Shown here one piece after another: positions 1-8,131 of a stretch of 12,819 nt of DNA; the stretch's first letter is position 1; the number at the start of each line of letters is the position of its first letter. The notes beneath the pieces are model-generated. The model was not told where the DNA came from. It saw only the letters and a program-made list of their open reading frames with translations, and ran no database searches. The DNA comes from a virus (taxonomy: Duplodnaviria > Heunggongvirae > Uroviricota > Caudoviricetes): IMG/VR virus record IMGVR_UViG_3300030021_000014; one strand, given 5' to 3'. The translations under genes and the position numbers were made by a program.

Positions 1-218
1 GGGGAACGGTGGCAACACAAAAGGGAGCTGATGCTGGATATGCCTTACCATTTGCTTTTCCCTATGCAGGCTTATTTGCGACCGGAAACCGTGGAACATC
101 TGGCTACAATGCCGCGATGAATGTGCGTATTGCCAGCAGAACGCATATCAGTATTCAGAACTGGTCGCCATCCGGAGAGGGCACCGAAGATTGTTGTTTT
201 ATCGCGCTGGGGTATTAA
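1..218 (+). CDS. Tail fiber protein, C-terminal variable domain of an alternative (silent-orientation) cassette; 5' end lies upstream of the window
   Basis: Frame is open from the window edge to TAA at 216-218; the M at 9 in the ORF track is a GTG codon inside a longer frame. C-terminal motif FIALGY resembles the YLALGI end of the minus-strand fiber (659..1234). A tail fiber assembly gene follows 3 nt downstream. Confidence 0.6.
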   Translation, partial: GTVATQKGADAGYALPFAFPYAGLFATGNRGTSGYNAAMNVRIASRTHISIQNWSPSGEGTEDCCFIALGY

Positions 219-220
219 GA

Positions 221-631
221 ATGAATAAATTTTATAAAGGCTCTTTCTATCCGAAAGCACTAAAAGAGGTATATATCAGCGCCGGTTCATGGCCTGAAAA
301 TGGCGTTGATGTTGATGATGAAACAATGGCAATTTACACAGGCGTAGCGCCACAAGGCAAAACGCTGGGGGCTGATAAAAATGGTAATCCTGCGTGGATT
401 GATATCCCGCCACTCTCCGCTGAACAACAGATTATTCAGGCTGAACAGAAAAGAACGGTATTGCGTTCTATGGCTGATAAGGAAATAGTCTGGAGACAGG
501 ATGCTTTTGATGCGGAAATCGCGACGGCAGAAGAAACCGCCGCGTTATCTGAATGGAAAAAATACCGGGTGCTGCTGATGCGCGTTGATACCTCAAAAGC
601 CCCCGATATTCTGTGGCCTCCGCAACCGTAA
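221..631 (+). CDS. Tail fiber assembly chaperone (Tfa family)
   Basis: ATG at 221 (MNKFYKG...), 136 aa, starts 3 nt after the fiber stop. Size and sequence character match recalled enterobacterial prophage Tfa proteins. The ORF-track start at 191 is an upstream in-frame extension overlapping the fiber stop. Confidence 0.8.
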   Translation: MNKFYKGSFYPKALKEVYISAGSWPENGVDVDDETMAIYTGVAPQGKTLGADKNGNPAWIDIPPLSAEQQIIQAEQKRTVLRSMADKEIVWRQDAFDAEIATAEETAALSEWKKYRVLLMRVDTSKAPDILWPPQP

Positions 632-634
632 CAA

Positions 635-655
635 AAAGCCGCTGTTTGCGGCTTT
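635..655. terminator. Bidirectional intrinsic terminator between the convergent tfa and tail fiber genes
   Basis: AAAGCCGC (635-642) / loop TGTTT / GCGGCTTT (648-655): 8-bp stem flanked by an A-run on one side and T-rich sequence on the other. It fills the 27-nt gap between the tfa stop (631) and the fiber stop (659). Confidence 0.55.
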
Positions 656-658
656 CTC

Positions 659-1234
659 TTATATCCCCAGCGCAAGATAGGTGTAGCTGTCAATATTGTT
701 TGCCGTACCGTTTCCACTCCAGCCATAGAGACTAAACCCGGTCTGCGTGTAATTAACAGATGTTACATACCGATGGTCAGCTGTGATTTTATGCGGAAGA
801 ACGATAAATGGGGTGACATTAAACGGTTTTTTAAAGCTTACCGTAGCATTGGTCGCCTGAACCGAGCCGTGCCCCCATTGCAGCAGCAATCCTCCCGGTA
901 ATTCAAAGTACCCATCAGCCTCCAGTAACCGTTCTCCAAATCCAAGGTTTTCGAGAGCCGTTTTCACCGTGCCATCCGATTTGATATCGCCAAACGGATT
1001 CTTGCGGCTTAACAGCAGCGCGCGAAGTGCGGTAAGTAACTGGTCGTGCCGCCCCTTCTCCAGGCTGGCACCGGATGCCTCCACCACGCTGCAAAGTTCC
1101 TCCTGCAACATGTCAAAGTAGTCATCATCCAGATCGGTGGCAGGCGTGCCGGTCTGGGGGTTACCACGGGTAAAACCGTTCTTACCCGCGCCGAACTTAT
1201 CCTTCTGCGCGGTTTTCGTGTCTATACGATGCAT
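659..1234 (-). CDS. Tail fiber protein (191 aa) with constant N-terminal half and variable C-terminal half
   Basis: ATG at 1234 with GGAG 6 nt upstream; follows the gp48-like gene stop by 3 nt. A Hin-family crossover-like site sits mid-gene at 932-957. Confidence 0.8.
932..957. other. Candidate Hin/Gin/Pin/Cin-family serine-invertase crossover site (hix/gix-like) inside the tail fiber gene
   Basis: TTCTCCAAATCC-AA-GGTTTTCGAGAG: two imperfect inverted 12-bp half sites around a 2-bp AA core. About 20 of 26 positions match the recalled hixL sequence TTCTTGAAAACCAAGGTTTTTGATAA. It encodes residues ~93-100 (LENLGFGE) of the 191-aa fiber, at the constant/variable junction. Confidence 0.6.
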
Positions 1235-1237
1235 GGA

Positions 1238-1822
1238 TTACTCCGGATATTTAAAAATTACGTAGGTATGCGACGGGCAGAGTTTGTTAAGCACACACTC
1301 GACAACGGTGTCACCCCAGATACGCAGTGCGGAATCACAGGGATCGCCACATGTCATCCAGGTGGTGTTGGCGGCGGCTGGCATGTTGACCTGCCAGTAA
1401 TACCGCCATTCCGGCGCATTCACAGCGTCAGTACAGGCCGATGAGCAGGTGAACGTGCTTTTGTCGTATCGCGTGATGGTGGCATCTGGTCTGCCCAGGG
1501 CAGCAAGCTGTGCAAGATAAAAATCCTCGTTGATGCCACCCGCCAGGTTAACCTTCGCATCCAGCCGTTGCTGACGCTGGCGAAGGGTCTGTGTCCCAGC
1601 GGGAATACATTCATCCGGCAGGCCGCACAGACGCTCCCAGCGATTTATCAGTTCGGTGGTGGTGCGCGGATCCAGCTCCCGCATCAGGGCATCCGCACGC
1701 TGATGAACGCGGGTTAATGACGGTGCCGCACCGGCAATCGACGGATCGCTGGCTGACCACGCCGGACCGGGGGGCAACAGTGCCGACAACAGACGGATGT
1801 AATCATCGTTTGTCACGTCCAT
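1238..1822 (-). CDS. Mu gp48-like tail protein (YmfQ/DUF2313-type), fiber-proximal baseplate component
   Basis: 194 aa, the same length as recalled E. coli e14 YmfQ. Its start overlaps the baseplate J stop (ATGGACGTGA) and it lies immediately upstream of the tail fiber. Confidence 0.75.
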
Positions 1823-2871
1823 GAAATCGTCCCCAGTACCGCCAGTTCATTTTTTGCAATGGAGATATTGTCTGCCGGTGCAAGCAACTGATGGCTGTAT
1901 TCCCCGTTCGCACCGGAAATCGCTTCACTGATACGTGACACCTTCAGTTCTCCCTGCGGATAACCATCACGCAGCAGGAACGAACGCAACTCCGCGGTAA
2001 TGGCAGCCCGTATTTCTGGTGTGTCCGGCGTCACGCGGATATGAAAATCCACCGTATGTGCCACCGGCCTGAATACATACAAATCAGAGCCTGCCACCGG
2101 GGCCAGTGGCCCGATATGTTGTCTTGCTGCCGTTTCCGTTGATTCTTCCGGAATGGGATTAATCAGGTCACTGCCGGCAATCATCACACCGACAGTCCCC
2201 GTTCCCATCCAGTGGCGGTATGTCCATGCACGGGTAATGCCGGGCACTTCTTTAGCCCAGACAACATAGTCCCCATCAGCCCCGCCCTGAGGCGTCCAGT
2301 AATACCGCTCAATGACGCGGGCGCGCCACGTTTCCAGATCTTCAGTATCGAATCCGCCAGTCAGGGTATCTGCAACACCGGAAGACGGCAGACCATTCAC
2401 CGGCGTGACCAGGATTAATGCCGTACCGTCGTCAGCGTTACCGACCGCGCCTGCACTTGAGCAGGCGATCGGCACGCGCAGGACACCACCGGAGCTGGTT
2501 GCATCAGCAGTTGCCGTGTACTGAACCAGGTCATCGCGCTGAATCACGCTCCCGGCGGTCACCTTCAGGCCATCGCTGACACCTTCCCAGCGCATATACC
2601 CGCTGGCAGCCGTGGCCCCCTTGCGCGGACACCGTTTCATCGCAGCATGTCGCGCCAGCCAGGACTCATCGCACAGGTCAGGCAGCATGTTCATTGCCAG
2701 ATAATCGATGTAACCGTAAACCGTATGCAGCGCCGCCGCATACACCTTTGCCCGCACGTCTTCATCCATGCGCCGGAGCGTGTCGCTGACGTCCAGCCTG
2801 GCGAATAAATCGTTACGGAGCATACTGATATTTTCTGCCAGCGTCGGGCGCTGAAATTCACTGTCCGCCAT
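1813..2871 (-). CDS. Baseplate J-like protein (Mu gp47 family)
   Basis: 352 aa; sits between the gp46-like and gp48-like genes as in Mu-like baseplate modules; 14-nt overlap with the upstream gene. Confidence 0.85.
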
Positions 2872-3286
2872 GCGTTATCGCACTCCACAGATCATCAAAA
2901 GAAATCATTACCGGTCCGTCACGACGCCAGAGGGTGATACTGTTACCCAGCTCATTAATCCCGGTGCGGCGGATATCCAGATCAATACGGGACACCACGC
3001 CGTCATCAATCATCCATTGCAGGCATTCGCGGATATACCCCCTTACTGTCTGCACCAGCTGATTGGTCAGTTTGCTGCGCTGAAGCAGCCACAGTCGGGA
3101 GCCGTAACGGTCATTCTGTACCGCAGGCCAGGTATCCCCCCACCATCCCATCGGGACGTCGGCGTTGTCATCAGGCTCCGCCCGCCGCCAGGTAAACAGG
3201 GAAATCACCACGGCGCGGGTCAGCGGATCCAGCGGTGCGCTGGCGCAGGTGCGTTTACCGTTCACCGTCAGCCACAGTTCCATCAT
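2858..3286 (-). CDS. Phage GP46-family baseplate protein (Mu gp46 / P2 gpW-like)
   Basis: 142 aa; ATGA overlap with the upstream spike gene; position and size typical of gp46. Confidence 0.8.
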   Translation of the reverse strand: MMELWLTVNGKRTCASAPLDPLTRAVVISLFTWRRAEPDDNADVPMGWWGDTWPAVQNDRYGSRLWLLQRSKLTNQLVQTVRGYIRECLQWMIDDGVVSRIDLDIRRTGINELGNSITLWRRDGPVMISFDDLWSAITHGGQ

Positions 3287-3831
3287 GCCTCCATCGCTTT
3301 ATCCGGTTTGTCGGTGTTACTGCCCTGACCGTTCTCTCTGTGACGATGCCCGTTATAGGCAAGCCGCATCGCTGACATGGTAGTGCCGCTGGAGTCGCAC
3401 AGGTCTTTCACCTGTCCTGTCACTTCCAGGTCCATTTCAAAACGTGCTTTAGGTGAATTGCGAAACGTGATCGTTTTACCTGCACCGTCCACCACGATCC
3501 CCTCCCGGGTCAGCGTCACGGACTGCCCCTGATCGTCATAGACAGCCACCTCACCCGTCTGCAGCCCTTTCAGGCGGTAGCGCCGGTCCGACACCGTAAC
3601 AACCACCGCATGAGAACGGTCGCCATCCGGAAACAACACCACCGCTTCCGCACCGCTGTTTGCCCTTGCGGTAAAACCGTAGGGTTCAAGATGTTCAACC
3701 CCGGCTTTGGGTTCACCGGCAATCAGGGACACATCCACGGTCTGACATTTCGTGGCGGCACTGATGCTTTTCACCACGGCCCGCCCAATCAGGCCGAGGA
3801 GTTGTCGCTGCATGGCTTCAATCGCCCTCAT
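3283..3831 (-). CDS. Baseplate assembly protein V / central spike (Mu gp45-like)
   Basis: 182 aa; gene order between the P-like and gp46-like genes; translationally coupled (TGATG). Confidence 0.8.
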   Translation of the reverse strand: MRAIEAMQRQLLGLIGRAVVKSISAATKCQTVDVSLIAGEPKAGVEHLEPYGFTARANSGAEAVVLFPDGDRSHAVVVTVSDRRYRLKGLQTGEVAVYDDQGQSVTLTREGIVVDGAGKTITFRNSPKARFEMDLEVTGQVKDLCDSSGTTMSAMRLAYNGHRHRENGQGSNTDKPDKAMEA

Positions 3832-4910
3832 CAGAACGGGTCCTCCTGTACTCTGGCTTTTTTCTTTTTCCGCGCGCCGGGATCTTCGGGTTCAGGCAGA
3901 TAAGCATCAGGCGGGCCGACACGGATTTCCGTCAGGGTGCCGTTCTGGTCCTGAGTAAACGTGACTTCCGAAACAAGCAGTTCGGTATTGTCGAAACCAC
4001 AGACCGGATCGAAGACAATCACCCGCTGGTTGGGCTGCCACAGCGTACCGTTACCCTGTCGCCAGCCCTGCACCACATAAGTGGTTTCATCCGTCCGCGC
4101 CGCCCGTTGTCGGGCTTCAAAGTCAGCACGCGCAATACAGCCTGCCCCCGTGGCCTGCCCTGTCTGCCTGATATACATCGGACGGTAACGGGCAATAAAT
4201 GCGTCCTCTGTGCGGGCCCGCAGCGCAGTTGTGGTGGCCTCACCGAAATCATCGTCGTTTCCGGCACGCTGCCCCGCCACCTGGTAAACAGAAAACCGCT
4301 CCCGGATACTCTTCTCCGTATCGCAGGAAAGGATGTTTTCCCCAAGTACCAGCGCGGTATGTGCCCGCGTTGAGCCAATACCGCCAATCACCAGCCTGCC
4401 GTGCGGGTCGTCGTAAGCCAGCGCCTGCTGCTGACCGAGTATTTTGTTGATTACCTCAATCACCGTTTCACCGTGATCAGGCTGAACATCAGGAATAACA
4501 CCCGACGGCGCACCGCTGTTCACCACCTCAATGCCGAAAGGTGCAGCAAGCGCCTGCGCAATCTGCACCAGCGAGCGTCCGTTAAACTGTGTCGGTTCGG
4601 CTGCACAGTCAATCAGCTCAGCCGTCAGACTACGTCCGGCAATACCGGTGCTGACCGAACGGGCATCGTAACGAACGGGAGTCGCCTCCACCCAGCCGGT
4701 GATCACCAGCTCATCACCAATTAGCACTTCCACTTTTGAACCGTTTTTAATGCGCGGCTGAAGCGTGGTGATACCCTCATCTCCCGGCCATTGGCGAGTG
4801 ATCTCCACACTGAAATCCCGCGCCAGCCGTTCAATACCGGCACCGATGCGCACCGATGTCCAGCCATTCCACTCCCGGCCATTTACCCGTAGCGTGACAT
4901 TGTCGTTCAT
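3831..4910 (-). CDS. Mu P (gp44)-like tail protein / late control D-family baseplate hub
   Basis: 359 aa; ATGA overlap with the upstream gene; position after the DNA-circularization-like gene. C-terminus contains a KKKK run. Confidence 0.8.
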   Translation of the reverse strand: MNDNVTLRVNGREWNGWTSVRIGAGIERLARDFSVEITRQWPGDEGITTLQPRIKNGSKVEVLIGDELVITGWVEATPVRYDARSVSTGIAGRSLTAELIDCAAEPTQFNGRSLVQIAQALAAPFGIEVVNSGAPSGVIPDVQPDHGETVIEVINKILGQQQALAYDDPHGRLVIGGIGSTRAHTALVLGENILSCDTEKSIRERFSVYQVAGQRAGNDDDFGEATTTALRARTEDAFIARYRPMYIRQTGQATGAGCIARADFEARQRAARTDETTYVVQGWRQGNGTLWQPNQRVIVFDPVCGFDNTELLVSEVTFTQDQNGTLTEIRVGPPDAYLPEPEDPGARKKKKARVQEDPF

Positions 4911-6235
4911 TGCACTGGCACCTTCAGAGGGATCACCGGCACAAAGCCGGGATGCGTAATGGCATTACGCCGGATAATGTCCGCGTCACGCGCCGCGTTA
5001 TCAAACCAGGTCGCCGCCAGCACCAGCGCGGGTAAAACCTCATCCGGCGTGCGCTGAATGATCCGTGCAGACTGTTCAAGGCGCGTGTTGATATCCGCAT
5101 TCAGATCTGCTTTCACCCGGCGCAGCGCCAGAAACAGCGCATCACTGGTTGTACGGGACAACTCCTTATCAATTGCCGTATTCAGTGTGTCGCGAATGTC
5201 GGTCAGTTCTTCCCACGTTGGCAGGTCAACCGTGTTTTTCACCGCCGGTGCATTGTTCAGTGCCGGATGCGTGACAGAAGGCCAGCCGGTGCTCTGCGCG
5301 GGTGTTGTTGACTGCCCTACTGTGGCATTCTGCATCACCGCGGAAGTTGTGGGCGCAGGCAATCGTGTGACGGCATACGCCGCTTCGCTGATTGCGGTCG
5401 TACGAAGGGTGCTGGCAACCACGTTACGCTGCTGCGTCGCCGTGGCGGTAGTTTTACTGTCCGTTTTCCAGACGCCGCGCGGTTGCAGATCGCTGCCGAG
5501 GCTGACACCGGAAAGCGTTTTGATCATGGTGACCAGGTCGCTGGCGTTACCATAAAGGCGTTTCCCGGTACGCCACATTTTCTGCACCTGCTCAACGAAA
5601 TTTTTGCCTGACGATGGTGGCGGCAGAAGTACCGAGATATCCCCCTGCAACAGCCTGGCGGCATCCGATACGGCAGAATCCACCACTTTCATCGCATCAG
5701 AAACATACCCAAGCATTGTGCTGGCATTACCGACGACGTCGTTCTGCACAAAATCTGCCACGCCATCGATACTGAAACCACTGAAGCTGTCACTGATGCA
5801 GTCATCCAGTGCAGAACAGGATGACATCAGCGTCTGCGCCGTCGCCGCACCTGAAGTGGGGTAAGAGAGTTCTCCCGCTTCGACAAACTTCAGGTCAAAG
5901 CGGACAATACGCCCTTCACTCTTCGATGTGCTGACCCGAACTTCCCCGTCAACACAGACTTTCAGCTCACCGTAAGTCGGATGGACAAGCGTGCCGGGAC
6001 CGGGTTTATTCAGCGCGTCAATCAGGCGATCGCGCTGGTCAAAGCAGTCATCTCCCACCACATAAGCTGTGATGGACGGGCGGAAAGTGATTTTCCCCAG
6101 GTCTTCGGTATAGGGTTTGTCGCGGTTCGGGTATTCGTGCGTTTCCACACGACGACCGGTTCCCGCACTTTCTTCTTCAACCTTAAACGGCACACCGCGA
6201 AATGACGCGTCCTGAAGTCTGTCTTTCCACGTCAT
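4907..6235 (-). CDS. Mu N (gp43)-like DNA circularization protein
   Basis: Preferred start is ATG at 6235 (MTWKDRLQDASFRGVPF...) with GGAG 7 nt upstream. The ORF-track starts at 6277 and 6250 lack an RBS and overlap a hairpin. N-terminal sequence matches the recalled DNA_circ_N signature. Confidence 0.75.
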   Translation of the reverse strand: MTWKDRLQDASFRGVPFKVEEESAGTGRRVETHEYPNRDKPYTEDLGKITFRPSITAYVVGDDCFDQRDRLIDALNKPGPGTLVHPTYGELKVCVDGEVRVSTSKSEGRIVRFDLKFVEAGELSYPTSGAATAQTLMSSCSALDDCISDSFSGFSIDGVADFVQNDVVGNASTMLGYVSDAMKVVDSAVSDAARLLQGDISVLLPPPSSGKNFVEQVQKMWRTGKRLYGNASDLVTMIKTLSGVSLGSDLQPRGVWKTDSKTTATATQQRNVVASTLRTTAISEAAYAVTRLPAPTTSAVMQNATVGQSTTPAQSTGWPSVTHPALNNAPAVKNTVDLPTWEELTDIRDTLNTAIDKELSRTTSDALFLALRRVKADLNADINTRLEQSARIIQRTPDEVLPALVLAATWFDNAARDADIIRRNAITHPGFVPVIPLKVPVQ

Positions 6236-6256
6236 ATAAACTCCGTACATAAAAAA

Positions 6257-6272
6257 TCCCACCGGAGTGGGA
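6257..6272 (-). terminator. Intra-operon terminator-like hairpin plus T6 between the tape measure and gp43-like genes
   Basis: On the minus strand: TCCCAC-TCCG-GTGGGA followed directly by TTTTTT (plus-strand 6251-6256 is A6). Lies 24 nt after the TMP stop and 15 nt before the next start. Confidence 0.35.
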
Positions 6273-6295
6273 CTCATTAACAGATTAATTTTTCA

Positions 6296-8131
6296 TTACC
6301 TGCCAAAGCGCGTATAGCCAACATCATGGCTGACATCAAAACCGCTGGATCGCGTTTCCATAACCCGCATACCCGGAGGCGAATTCACAAAAGAGACCTT
6401 GATCTCACCATCAACTTTTGGCGCAGAAGCTTTGTTAATCATGAAGGGATTCGGGCCTGTGGCACCGGAGGCGTTGTTTGACTGAGCCGGATCTACCGCC
6501 TGATAAGGTGTGTATCCCCGTGCCGGTATTCCCGTCCCATAAGCATCATAAGCACCCGCGCCCCACTGCGCAGAGTTAATGGCATCGACCGTGTCACCGG
6601 AACTGTCGGTAAACCACTCAATAATTGGCTTCAGTTTGTCCCACATATCCTGAAACCACTTAACAACCGGTCCCCAGTTATTGATTACCATCCCCAGCGG
6701 CGACCAGGCAAAAACCTTCTTCAGAAGTTCCCAGCCAGCCTCAAAATAAGGACCAATGGTTTCCCAGAGCTTCTTGAAATAAGGTCCGACAACATCCCAG
6801 TTAGTGATAATTAATCCCGCAGCCAGGGCTATCGCCGTCGCAATCATTCCAATCGGCGTCATCGACATGATCCTGCTGACAATACTGATGGCACCGCCAA
6901 CGCCCATCAATCCCAGTTTCAGAATCGCAAGACCGGCAGCAAGCCCGACGACGCCGCGAATAACCCGGGGATTTTCATCCGCAAACTTCGTGAATTTTTC
7001 CCCTAACTCCCCCAGCCATTGCGTGATATTTTTGGCGTCACCAGAAAATGCGCCGCCAATAGCCGCAAGGCCGTTAGTTGCGGTCCCCGTCATTGCCTCC
7101 CACAGGTTGGACAGCGTACCAAGCTGGGCCTGAACACGTTTATTCAGGCTGGCCTGTTTATTCATCTTCTGCTGGATCTGATCGTAGCCATCCTTTCCTT
7201 TATCGATTAGTGCATTGACCACCTGAAGGGTTTCGGCATCATCACCAAATATTGCCTTAAGTACACCTGTTCGCTTAACGTCGGTCAGTTTTCGCAGCTT
7301 TGCCAGTTGCCTGAACATGTTATCAAGACCGCCAAAACTTCCTTTGCCGTCAGTAAAATCGAGCTGTACCCCGAGTTTCTGGCGGGCCATGATTTTATTG
7401 ACGTCCCTGATTTTCTTAACGCTTAATCCGGACTGGATAACTTTTCGCAGGGCGTTACCTGCCGACTCCCCGTTCATCCCCATCTGATCCATCATGACGC
7501 TGATGGGGGCAAGGCTCTGTGCAGCCTGAAGACCGTCCTTGTTCACCATCTTCAGAACAGAGCTGGTTTTAGTGAAGAAGGACAACATGTTGGTATCGTC
7601 AACACCCAGATAAAACGCCTTCTGGATAGTGTCGAACAGCCCCATCATGTCTTCTGACGCCGTTCCGGTAGCATCCTGCATCTTTGCAGCAAACTCAGCA
7701 GCCGCTTCCGGTGTTTTTTTCAGTTGTACCGCAAGATAAGCTGTCGCTTTACCCACACCGCCAAGAATGTTTTCTGCCGGGATCCCCTGACGCACCAGCA
7801 TCTGCATCATGTTCTGGAAATCAGCCGTTGTACCGGGTAGCTGGTTACCCAGGCCAATAGCCAGTTTATTGATGTCCTGAAAGCTCTTTCCGACCTCGCC
7901 GTTCGCATCCATCATGGCGACTTTCAGCCCGGTGGCGGCGTTTTCCTGATCGGCATAAGATTTCAGGGAAAGCGTCAGACCCGCTGCCAGTCCGCCACCA
8001 AGCGCCAGCCCACCCTGTGACGCTTCTTCCGCCTGGCGTTTAAATCCCCGGATTTTCTTTTGCATTTTCGACAGCGCGGGAGAAAGCCTGTCGACACCGG
8101 TGATCAACGCCTTAAGCTCAAATTCCGCCAT
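6296..8131 (-). CDS. Tail tape measure protein
   Basis: 611 aa, Ala/Gly/Leu/Gln-rich with a hydrophobic segment. Sits between the frameshifted chaperone and the baseplate genes; AGGAG upstream of ATG at 8131. Confidence 0.85.
   Translation of the reverse strand: MAEFELKALITGVDRLSPALSKMQKKIRGFKRQAEEASQGGLALGGGLAAGLTLSLKSYADQENAATGLKVAMMDANGEVGKSFQDINKLAIGLGNQLPGTTADFQNMMQMLVRQGIPAENILGGVGKATAYLAVQLKKTPEAAAEFAAKMQDATGTASEDMMGLFDTIQKAFYLGVDDTNMLSFFTKTSSVLKMVNKDGLQAAQSLAPISVMMDQMGMNGESAGNALRKVIQSGLSVKKIRDVNKIMARQKLGVQLDFTDGKGSFGGLDNMFRQLAKLRKLTDVKRTGVLKAIFGDDAETLQVVNALIDKGKDGYDQIQQKMNKQASLNKRVQAQLGTLSNLWEAMTGTATNGLAAIGGAFSGDAKNITQWLGELGEKFTKFADENPRVIRGVVGLAAGLAILKLGLMGVGGAISIVSRIMSMTPIGMIATAIALAAGLIITNWDVVGPYFKKLWETIGPYFEAGWELLKKVFAWSPLGMVINNWGPVVKWFQDMWDKLKPIIEWFTDSSGDTVDAINSAQWGAGAYDAYGTGIPARGYTPYQAVDPAQSNNASGATGPNPFMINKASAPKVDGEIKVSFVNSPPGMRVMETRSSGFDVSHDVGYTRFGR

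Follow-up and report, generated by a model that had tools for sequence, protein, structure and literature searches.

Organisation of the tail-fibre locus

The sequence analysed here, virus record IMGVR_UViG_3300030021_000014 of IMG/VR, is a 12.8-kb stretch of DNA (12,819 nt; hereafter the window). A minus-strand tail operon, Mu-like and intact, occupies nearly all of it, and the left end of the window enters an invertible tail-fibre segment. The list of open reading frames (ORFs) and the Pfam matches place in this operon the tape measure, DNA circulation, sheath and tube genes, together with homologues of gp44-48. The host element is an e14-like prophage whose tail is of the Mu-like type, and the window stops inside its Pin-type invertible tail-fibre segment. 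At that end the constant N-terminal part of the fibre (Sc) runs into a variable tip (Sv), and a silent alternative C-terminus (Sv'), followed by the chaperone gene tfa, lies on the opposite strand (Table 1). A sequence-only reading of the window had drawn attention to this asymmetry, in that the expressed fibre has no tfa downstream and the lone tfa is paired with the silent variable domain; the fibre, the tfa and the silent domain all lie where it had placed them.

Table 1. Features of the invertible tail-fibre segment and its right flank (window positions unless a sibling locus is named)
Feature	Position	Strand	Basis and remarks
ymfQ / Mu gp48-like baseplate gene	1238..1822	-	Phage_Mu_Gp48, E 1e-26; annotations of sibling loci; directly upstream of the fibre; marks where the tail operon ends
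Fibre ORF, 191 aa	659..1234	-	ORF list; Pfam Gp53-like_C at residues 112-190
Sc, constant N-terminal part of the fibre	958..1234	-	StfP / Mu S N-terminal type; baseplate-attachment end
Sv, tfa-less variable tip	659..931	-	Fibre residues about 102-191; predicted compact Gp53-like / H-type-lectin head
hix/pix-like crossover site, 26 bp	932..957	+	Right end of the invertible segment; central AA at 944-945
Hairpin terminator	635..655	.	Common to both convergent genes
tfa, 136 aa	221..631	+	Caudo_TAP; cognate to Sv'; antisense to the fibre transcript in the window orientation
Sv', silent alternative fibre C-terminus, 3' part	1..218	+	Cut by the window edge; Gp53-like_C
Silent-slot tip ORF	L004 4020-4346, L011 4871-5194		Proteins P0001-P0019; analogue of the e14 chimera StfE2

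Sc differs from the first 97 residues of K-12 StfP by a single substitution (K91Q), and its profile matches the N-terminus of the Mu fibre S (5yvq/8ju3). The crossover site, TTCTCCAAATCCAAGGTTTTCGAGAG, lies inside the fibre gene, has a single match in the window (0.07 expected by chance) and encodes the ...ENLGFGE... stretch of the protein. The 94 residues of the fibre beyond this site form a Gp53-like_C domain (E 3e-9; 37.7 bits, Pfam cutoff 24.9). The fibre and tfa converge, their stop codons being separated by a spacer of 27 nt that consists of the hairpin. Either strand can form this hairpin (-13.3 and -18.5 kcal/mol; z -3.5 and -3.9), so that the bidirectional terminator proposed from the sequence is plausible, but a consensus-based terminator scan accepted the plus-strand version only. 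Its stem, AAAGCCGC/GCGGCTTT, is common to five cassette types, whose loops are of three kinds.

The tfa gene begins 3 nt past the stop codon of Sv' and is a strong match to Caudo_TAP (E 2.3e-36; 125.3 bits, cutoff 22.1). Its protein, WP_047149170.1, also comes after an Sc-Sv' fibre in the sibling loci L004 and L011, where that fibre has 431 or 252 aa. The piece of Sv' within the window is identical to positions 5001-5218 of a further sibling locus, L001, and scores 24.4 bits for Gp53-like_C, just below the cutoff, because the window edge truncates the domain; the full-length fusion of 252 aa in L011 scores 35.4 bits. In the sibling loci the complete Sv' extends about 155 aa past the crossover site, and it carries the usual stalk motif (...LGTAATRDVG...) ahead of its cognate Tfa. 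A second tfa that might be co-transcribed with the fibre is absent from the window, as a hidden Markov model (HMM) of Tfa run over all six frames of the 12.8 kb returned 221..631 as its one hit. Minus-strand ORFs antisense to tfa (e.g., 436..726) were considered as a hidden helper and rejected, since they lie behind the terminator; they also overlap a tfa that is wholly different among cassettes with the same tip.

Inversion of the segment

Inversion of this segment is real, and both of its states occur in nature. An invertase and a second crossover site, which had been inferred to lie outside the window, are both present in L011 (E. coli EC7) and in L001 (strain Res13-Lact-EB12-05). The gene order in L011 is ymfQ, a 252-aa fibre composed of Sc and Sv', an identical 136-aa Tfa, the tip of the window as a silent 107-aa frame on the opposite strand, and an intact pinE (5224-5778), with the second site in inverted orientation at 5144-5169. 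The product that the sequence-only reading had predicted for an inversion, i.e., a fibre with the other C-terminus followed by its tfa, is therefore found in E. coli EC7. When L011 was inverted in silico between its two sites it gave a gap-free match of 99.4% to positions 1-4905 of the window, and without this inversion positions 1-950 of the window align in reverse. Homology to e14 of E. coli K-12 (96.8% over window positions 932-2600) halts exactly at 932, the outer edge of the crossover 26-mer. The invertible segment has a length of roughly 1.2 kb.

An identical segment (tip 100%) is held in both orientations by a P2-like prophage. In AR_0137 the fibre is a 431-aa fusion of Sc and Sv' followed by tfa, with the tip silent, and in Y5 and AF43 it is a 370-aa fusion of Sc and the tip (WP_071208494.1 for the P2-type fusion) with nothing behind it. 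L004 and L005 show exchanged half-sites, as do L007 and L008 of a second cassette type with its recombinase intact: inner halves stay with the segment and outer halves with the flanks, which marks a site-specific exchange at the central dinucleotide. Across 5,426 complete E. coli genomes, junctions of the tip were found with a P2-type Sc (10) and with the Sc of a Mu-like tail (3), as well as silent beside the recombinase (16).

In the P2-like loci L004, L005 and L006 the local invertase is a pseudogene fragment of 108 nt (L004 4374-4481). Among otherwise identical prophages of this type the tip is expressed in 6 and silent in 12, and the occurrence of both orientations despite a truncated invertase implies that inversion was carried out by another Pin-family enzyme acting in trans, or that it took place before the truncation. 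In L001 the fibre-side crossover site (6271-6296) has a mutated core (TTCTCCCAATTGAAGG...), and this copy may therefore be locked.

The tip as a module without tfa

Across all contexts examined, nothing but the hairpin separates the tip from a convergent tfa, the stop codons of the two lying 27-29 nt apart, and a co-oriented tfa never follows. These contexts comprise five E. coli cassette types (L003-L011), Enterobacter (L018/L033), Citrobacter (L029) and Klebsiella/E. coli (L030-32), and they place the tip with its hairpin on both Mu-like and P2-like tails in E. coli, Klebsiella, Enterobacter and Citrobacter. Homology among the cassettes stops just past the hairpin. The lack of a tfa belongs to the tip module and is not an accident of one locus.

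What lies across the hairpin is far less constant. The partner Tfas of 136, 141 and 190 aa share only 28-46% identity, a range that excludes a fourth partner of 191 aa (L033), and they accompany Sv' domains of either the Gp53-like or the collar type. Near-identical tips thus face unrelated Tfas, as in L007 compared with L009 (6 non-synonymous differences) and in the window compared with L010 (6.5). The tips themselves have pairwise ratios of non-synonymous to synonymous substitution rates (dN/dS) of 0.11-0.33 at dS values of up to 0.93, with no indels and a constant length. The protein database holds 48 distinct intact fibres of 191 aa, in which Sc is nearly invariant and variation is gathered in patches at residues 125-133, 152-154, 160-166 and 173-179. 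Judged from the sequences, this pattern fits the receptor-binding loops of a working domain rather than a remnant.

In metagenome contigs of Enterobacter (L018-L020, 3598-4173) the partner tfa is split into frames of 81 aa (Caudo_TAP) and 68 aa (Caudo_TAP_N), and the tfa-less 189-aa fibre beside it is intact. L030 and L032 (Klebsiella / E. coli A27; about 4105-7071) have a GmrSD-type restriction gene in place of the invertase, of which at most a 42-aa fragment remains. The cassette is thereby frozen in the tfa-less orientation, and about 20 similar contigs are reported. In a dusA-integrated lambdoid prophage of E. coli YZ22PE68 (L010, 3520-6231) the tip and crossover site lie behind an N-terminal gene of a lambda-type side tail fibre, a hint that lambdoid side fibres carry the module too; this N-terminal gene is annotated as a pseudogene, and for that reason L010 was left out of the working contexts.

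Predicted fold and relatives of the tip

By profile and by predicted fold, the tip is a Gp53-like_C / H-type lectin head. An AlphaFold2 monomer model built on an alignment of 68 sequences has an all-beta head on a helical stalk, with predicted local distance difference test values of 88-98 over residues 105-191. Foldseek searches with the head returned the foot domains of R1/R2 pyocin fibres, gp53 of phage AP22 and H-type lectins, including Helix pomatia agglutinin, SLL-2 and discoidin II (structures include 4mtm, 6cxb, 2ccv and 3wmp), and a profile search matched AP22 gp53 (4mtm) over both stalk and head (E 6e-14).

The possibility raised earlier that the C-terminal domain contains an intramolecular chaperone or autoproteolytic motif was not borne out: Gp53-like_C is the sole Pfam hit and reaches residue 190 of 191, and the modelled fibre has nothing after the last strand of the lectin head, leaving no room for a C-terminal chaperone of the Peptidase_S74 type. 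An alignment with the Tfa-coupled tips reveals a difference. In the sister tips and in Sv' a linker of ~18 aa, of the AAKRDVGTGxNQxPDMxxF type, separates the LGLGE encoded by the crossover site from the head, whereas the tfa-less tip passes from LGFGERL directly into the head. A more distant relative, 49% identical to the tip, forms the end of a fibre whose prophage locus is not invertible and has no tfa or invertase nearby.

Frequency of single-Tfa cassettes

We found no description in the literature of an asymmetric or chaperone-less invertible fibre cassette. From a collection with one genome per species, 79 loci with close relatives of PinE were surveyed with a home-made Tfa HMM and a site pattern, and about 30 of them are fibre cassettes; the HMM and the limit to ORFs of at least 50 aa make all counts approximate. 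Sixteen cassettes have two full Tfa genes, four have one full and one truncated copy (L055, L064, L083, L110), eight have a single Tfa (L048, L051, L053, L058, L059, L089, L093, L108) and two are multi-site. The rarity of the asymmetry implied by the sequence-only reading is thus contradicted, in that about a quarter of the Pin-linked fibre cassettes have a single detectable Tfa, and such asymmetry is fairly common across Enterobacterales. The tip family of the window itself was in none of the surveyed PinE-linked loci.

In some of the single-Tfa cassettes the other tip is followed by a small unannotated ORF, in others by nothing. The small ORFs of 61-87 aa after tfa-less tips in L001, L053, L059 and L093 had no Pfam match; by eye, some of them look like the N-terminal half of a Tfa, but we make no claim of this. 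In L001 the expressed 241-aa fibre is followed, in place of Tfa, by one such ORF of 77 aa (5612-5845). A second family of tfa-less tips (…NAKFVTxxGSNVNGDWTIWSDG…) occurs in Enterobacter and Mixta, always followed by a conserved ORF of ~61 aa (MRYF…NENGEP[IV]L[VI]D…) (L053, about 4993-5178; L093, about 4956-5189; L051, about 5392-5646). This ORF, which has no Pfam hit but by eye looks like the N-terminal half of a Tfa, could encode a minimal helper protein. Collar-type tips (…RPRN[IV]AFNYIVRA[AS]) stand without a co-oriented Tfa in L089 (Rosenbergiella) and L108 (a Sodalis metagenome-assembled genome), with a convergent tfa 117 and 10 nt away. In E. coli collar-type tips pair with a 200-aa Tfa, and its absence from these two loci could be due to decay, or it could be another example of Tfa-less use.

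Comparison with known switches

The Mu G segment (S-U / S'-U', Gin), the P1 C segment (Cin) and the window cassette all use a serine invertase at 26-bp sites to join a constant 5' part of the fibre gene to alternative 3' parts. Mu and P1 have two tip/chaperone pairs each; in contrast, the window cassette has one such pair and one chaperone-less tip. The S-U / S'-U' rule, in which each C-terminus has its own co-oriented tfa, is followed neither here nor in any homologous cassette. That classical layout was confirmed in K-12 e14 and in the sister fibres of 215 and 220 aa. The P segment of e14 (stfP-tfaP / tfaE-stfE', pinE) is like the window in its tail backbone, its Sc, its Pin-type site and the order ymfQ, fibre, segment and pin, but it has a Tfa behind each tip (TfaP 137 aa, TfaE 200 aa) and a length of 1,797 bp, whereas the window cassette measures about 1.2 kb and has one Tfa and one tip with a terminator only.

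The founder of Gp53-like_C, AP22 gp53 (PDB 4mtm), resembles the tip in its helical handle and lectin head (Foldseek 1.2e-4), but it belongs to a lytic Acinetobacter myovirus and is not part of an invertible cassette. The R1/R2 pyocin foot (6cxb, 6cl6, 6ct8) shares the lectin fold and gave the best Foldseek matches to the head; however, the pyocin fibre has a chaperone gene directly downstream, and co-expressed Tfa-like chaperones were required for a soluble yield.

Discussion

The sequence-only reading had offered three explanations for a fibre without its own tfa: a chaperone-independent variable domain, use of the lone tfa in trans, or a degenerate switch. The first of these fits best, and we consider it probable that the tip is a self-sufficient receptor-binding module with no dedicated Tfa, although its assembly and working without Tfa are what we infer. 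In the window orientation Sc is joined to a compact, 94-residue, lectin-like head, which is a portable module made up of its coding sequence and its own hairpin terminator and nothing else. Such a head would be likely to fold and trimerise on its short helical stalk without a dedicated Tfa, with the help of general host chaperones at most. Flipping the ~1.2-kb segment at the 26-bp sites swaps in Sv', of about 155 residues, together with its cognate 136-aa Tfa, and the switch would alternate between chaperone-coupled and chaperone-free receptor-binding tips. In favour of such a tip we count the demonstrated inversion, the natural occurrence of both states, the absence of a co-oriented tfa from the contexts examined, the varied partners, the purifying selection, the fold, the 49%-identical relative in a fixed locus and the missing ~18-aa linker. 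A precedent may be AP22 gp53C, which was a trimer when purified from E. coli expressing gene 53; the paper makes no mention of a chaperone (bioRxiv 10.1101/518761).

Several observations weigh against a Tfa-independent tip. The foot domains of the R1/R2 pyocins, which are the closest solved folds by Foldseek, were soluble only when chaperones were co-expressed (PMC6363177). Nearer to the window, Gp53-like tips on the same Sc (e14 StfP and the abundant fibres of 215 and 220 aa) have a Tfa downstream, and so does a relative of 42% identity (P0033). The fold alone therefore does not predict Tfa independence. Furthermore, a tblastn search of 50,697 phage records left the tip unmatched, i.e., no isolated-phage carrier is present in that collection.

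The first two of these points would also suit a tip that needs Tfa in trans, supplied either by the tfa of the cassette, if this were expressed whatever the orientation, or by another prophage in the cell. Several tfa genes are usual in E. coli genomes, in which neighbouring parts of the cassette have hundreds to thousands of matches, and the conserved C-terminal domain of Tfa is, as North et al. 2019 are said to have found, generic. The K-12 ORFs on the pin-proximal side have reported phenotypes, so the slot may be transcribed (PMC12529663). We nevertheless regard supply in trans as unlikely. The partner Tfas differ completely among cassettes with near-identical tips, the Enterobacter fibre is intact beside a split partner tfa, and the tfa of the window is antisense to the late transcript, from which a terminator also shields it; no sigma-70-like promoter toward tfa was found from the pin side or within Sv', which is a weak negative. 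Given that the module moves among Mu-like and P2-like tails and among genera, it cannot rely on a particular resident helper. Decay would account for the arrangement differently: the tfa of the tip would have been deleted, leaving an orientation that gives a non-functional or poorly assembling fibre and is effectively off. Obvious decay is seen in some of the surveyed cassettes, both in the truncated second Tfa copies and in the collar-type tips lacking Tfa, the invertase is truncated or lost in many carriers, and the lack of an isolated-phage carrier points the same way. Even so, a degenerate switch seems very improbable, because strong purifying selection, an invariant length and 48 intact variants with loop-focused variation argue that the tip is not a decaying remnant. 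The exact unit of tip and hairpin is kept across genera and across Mu-like and P2-like backbones, the 27-nt spacer holds no remnant of a tfa, and the surrounding tail operon is intact.

A host-side role is compatible with, rather than opposed to, the self-sufficient module that we favour, and as an explanation in its own right we give it very little weight. Here the pin-proximal tip would be made as a free lectin of ~108 aa that masks receptors against other phages and needs no Tfa. It is favoured by the silent-slot ORF, whose in-frame ATG (MMPVS...NVGFGE...) is conserved and comes from the pin-proximal flank, and which is annotated, with a length of 107-108 aa, in many genomes and genera; its analogue StfE2, the Gp53-like chimera of K-12 e14, is reported to block adsorption of phage T2 (PMC12529663). 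No promoter-like site was present in the one pin-side region scanned, that of L001, whose pin-proximal slot holds Sv' and not the window tip, and an intact tip ends the full-length fibres of 13 complete genomes and the 48 distinct 191-aa variants.

A bolder version, which we think unlikely, would combine these ideas, with head and hairpin forming a plug-in chaperone-free module for Mu-like, P2-like and perhaps lambdoid side-fibre scaffolds that has a possible second use, from the pin-proximal slot, as a free receptor-masking lectin of ~108 aa acting in StfE2-like exclusion. If true, it would explain why the tip has its own terminator and no Tfa. The retargeting of phages, tailocins and delivery particles is constrained by the need of most Mu-, P2- and lambda-type tips for a cognate Tfa to be transferred with them, and a compact, helper-free tip that nature already swaps among tail types and genera would be a convenient candidate part for engineering. 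Furthermore, the sister tips on the same Sc, which have a Tfa and differ by the ~18-aa linker motif, offer a natural contrast for the study of Tfa dependence. The textbook view in which every invertible fibre segment has two tip/chaperone pairs also requires correction, given that roughly a quarter of the surveyed cassettes deviate from it.

Genes beside the invertase

The cargo beside pinE differs among the siblings of the window. In E. coli EC7 (L011, 5836-9156) it consists of a LEM-3-like GIY-YIG nuclease and a reverse transcriptase of the retron Ec67 type, and in L001 (1-4067) the same GIY-YIG gene is accompanied by IS1 and a type II restriction-modification pair. This end of the prophage looks like a hotspot for defence genes.

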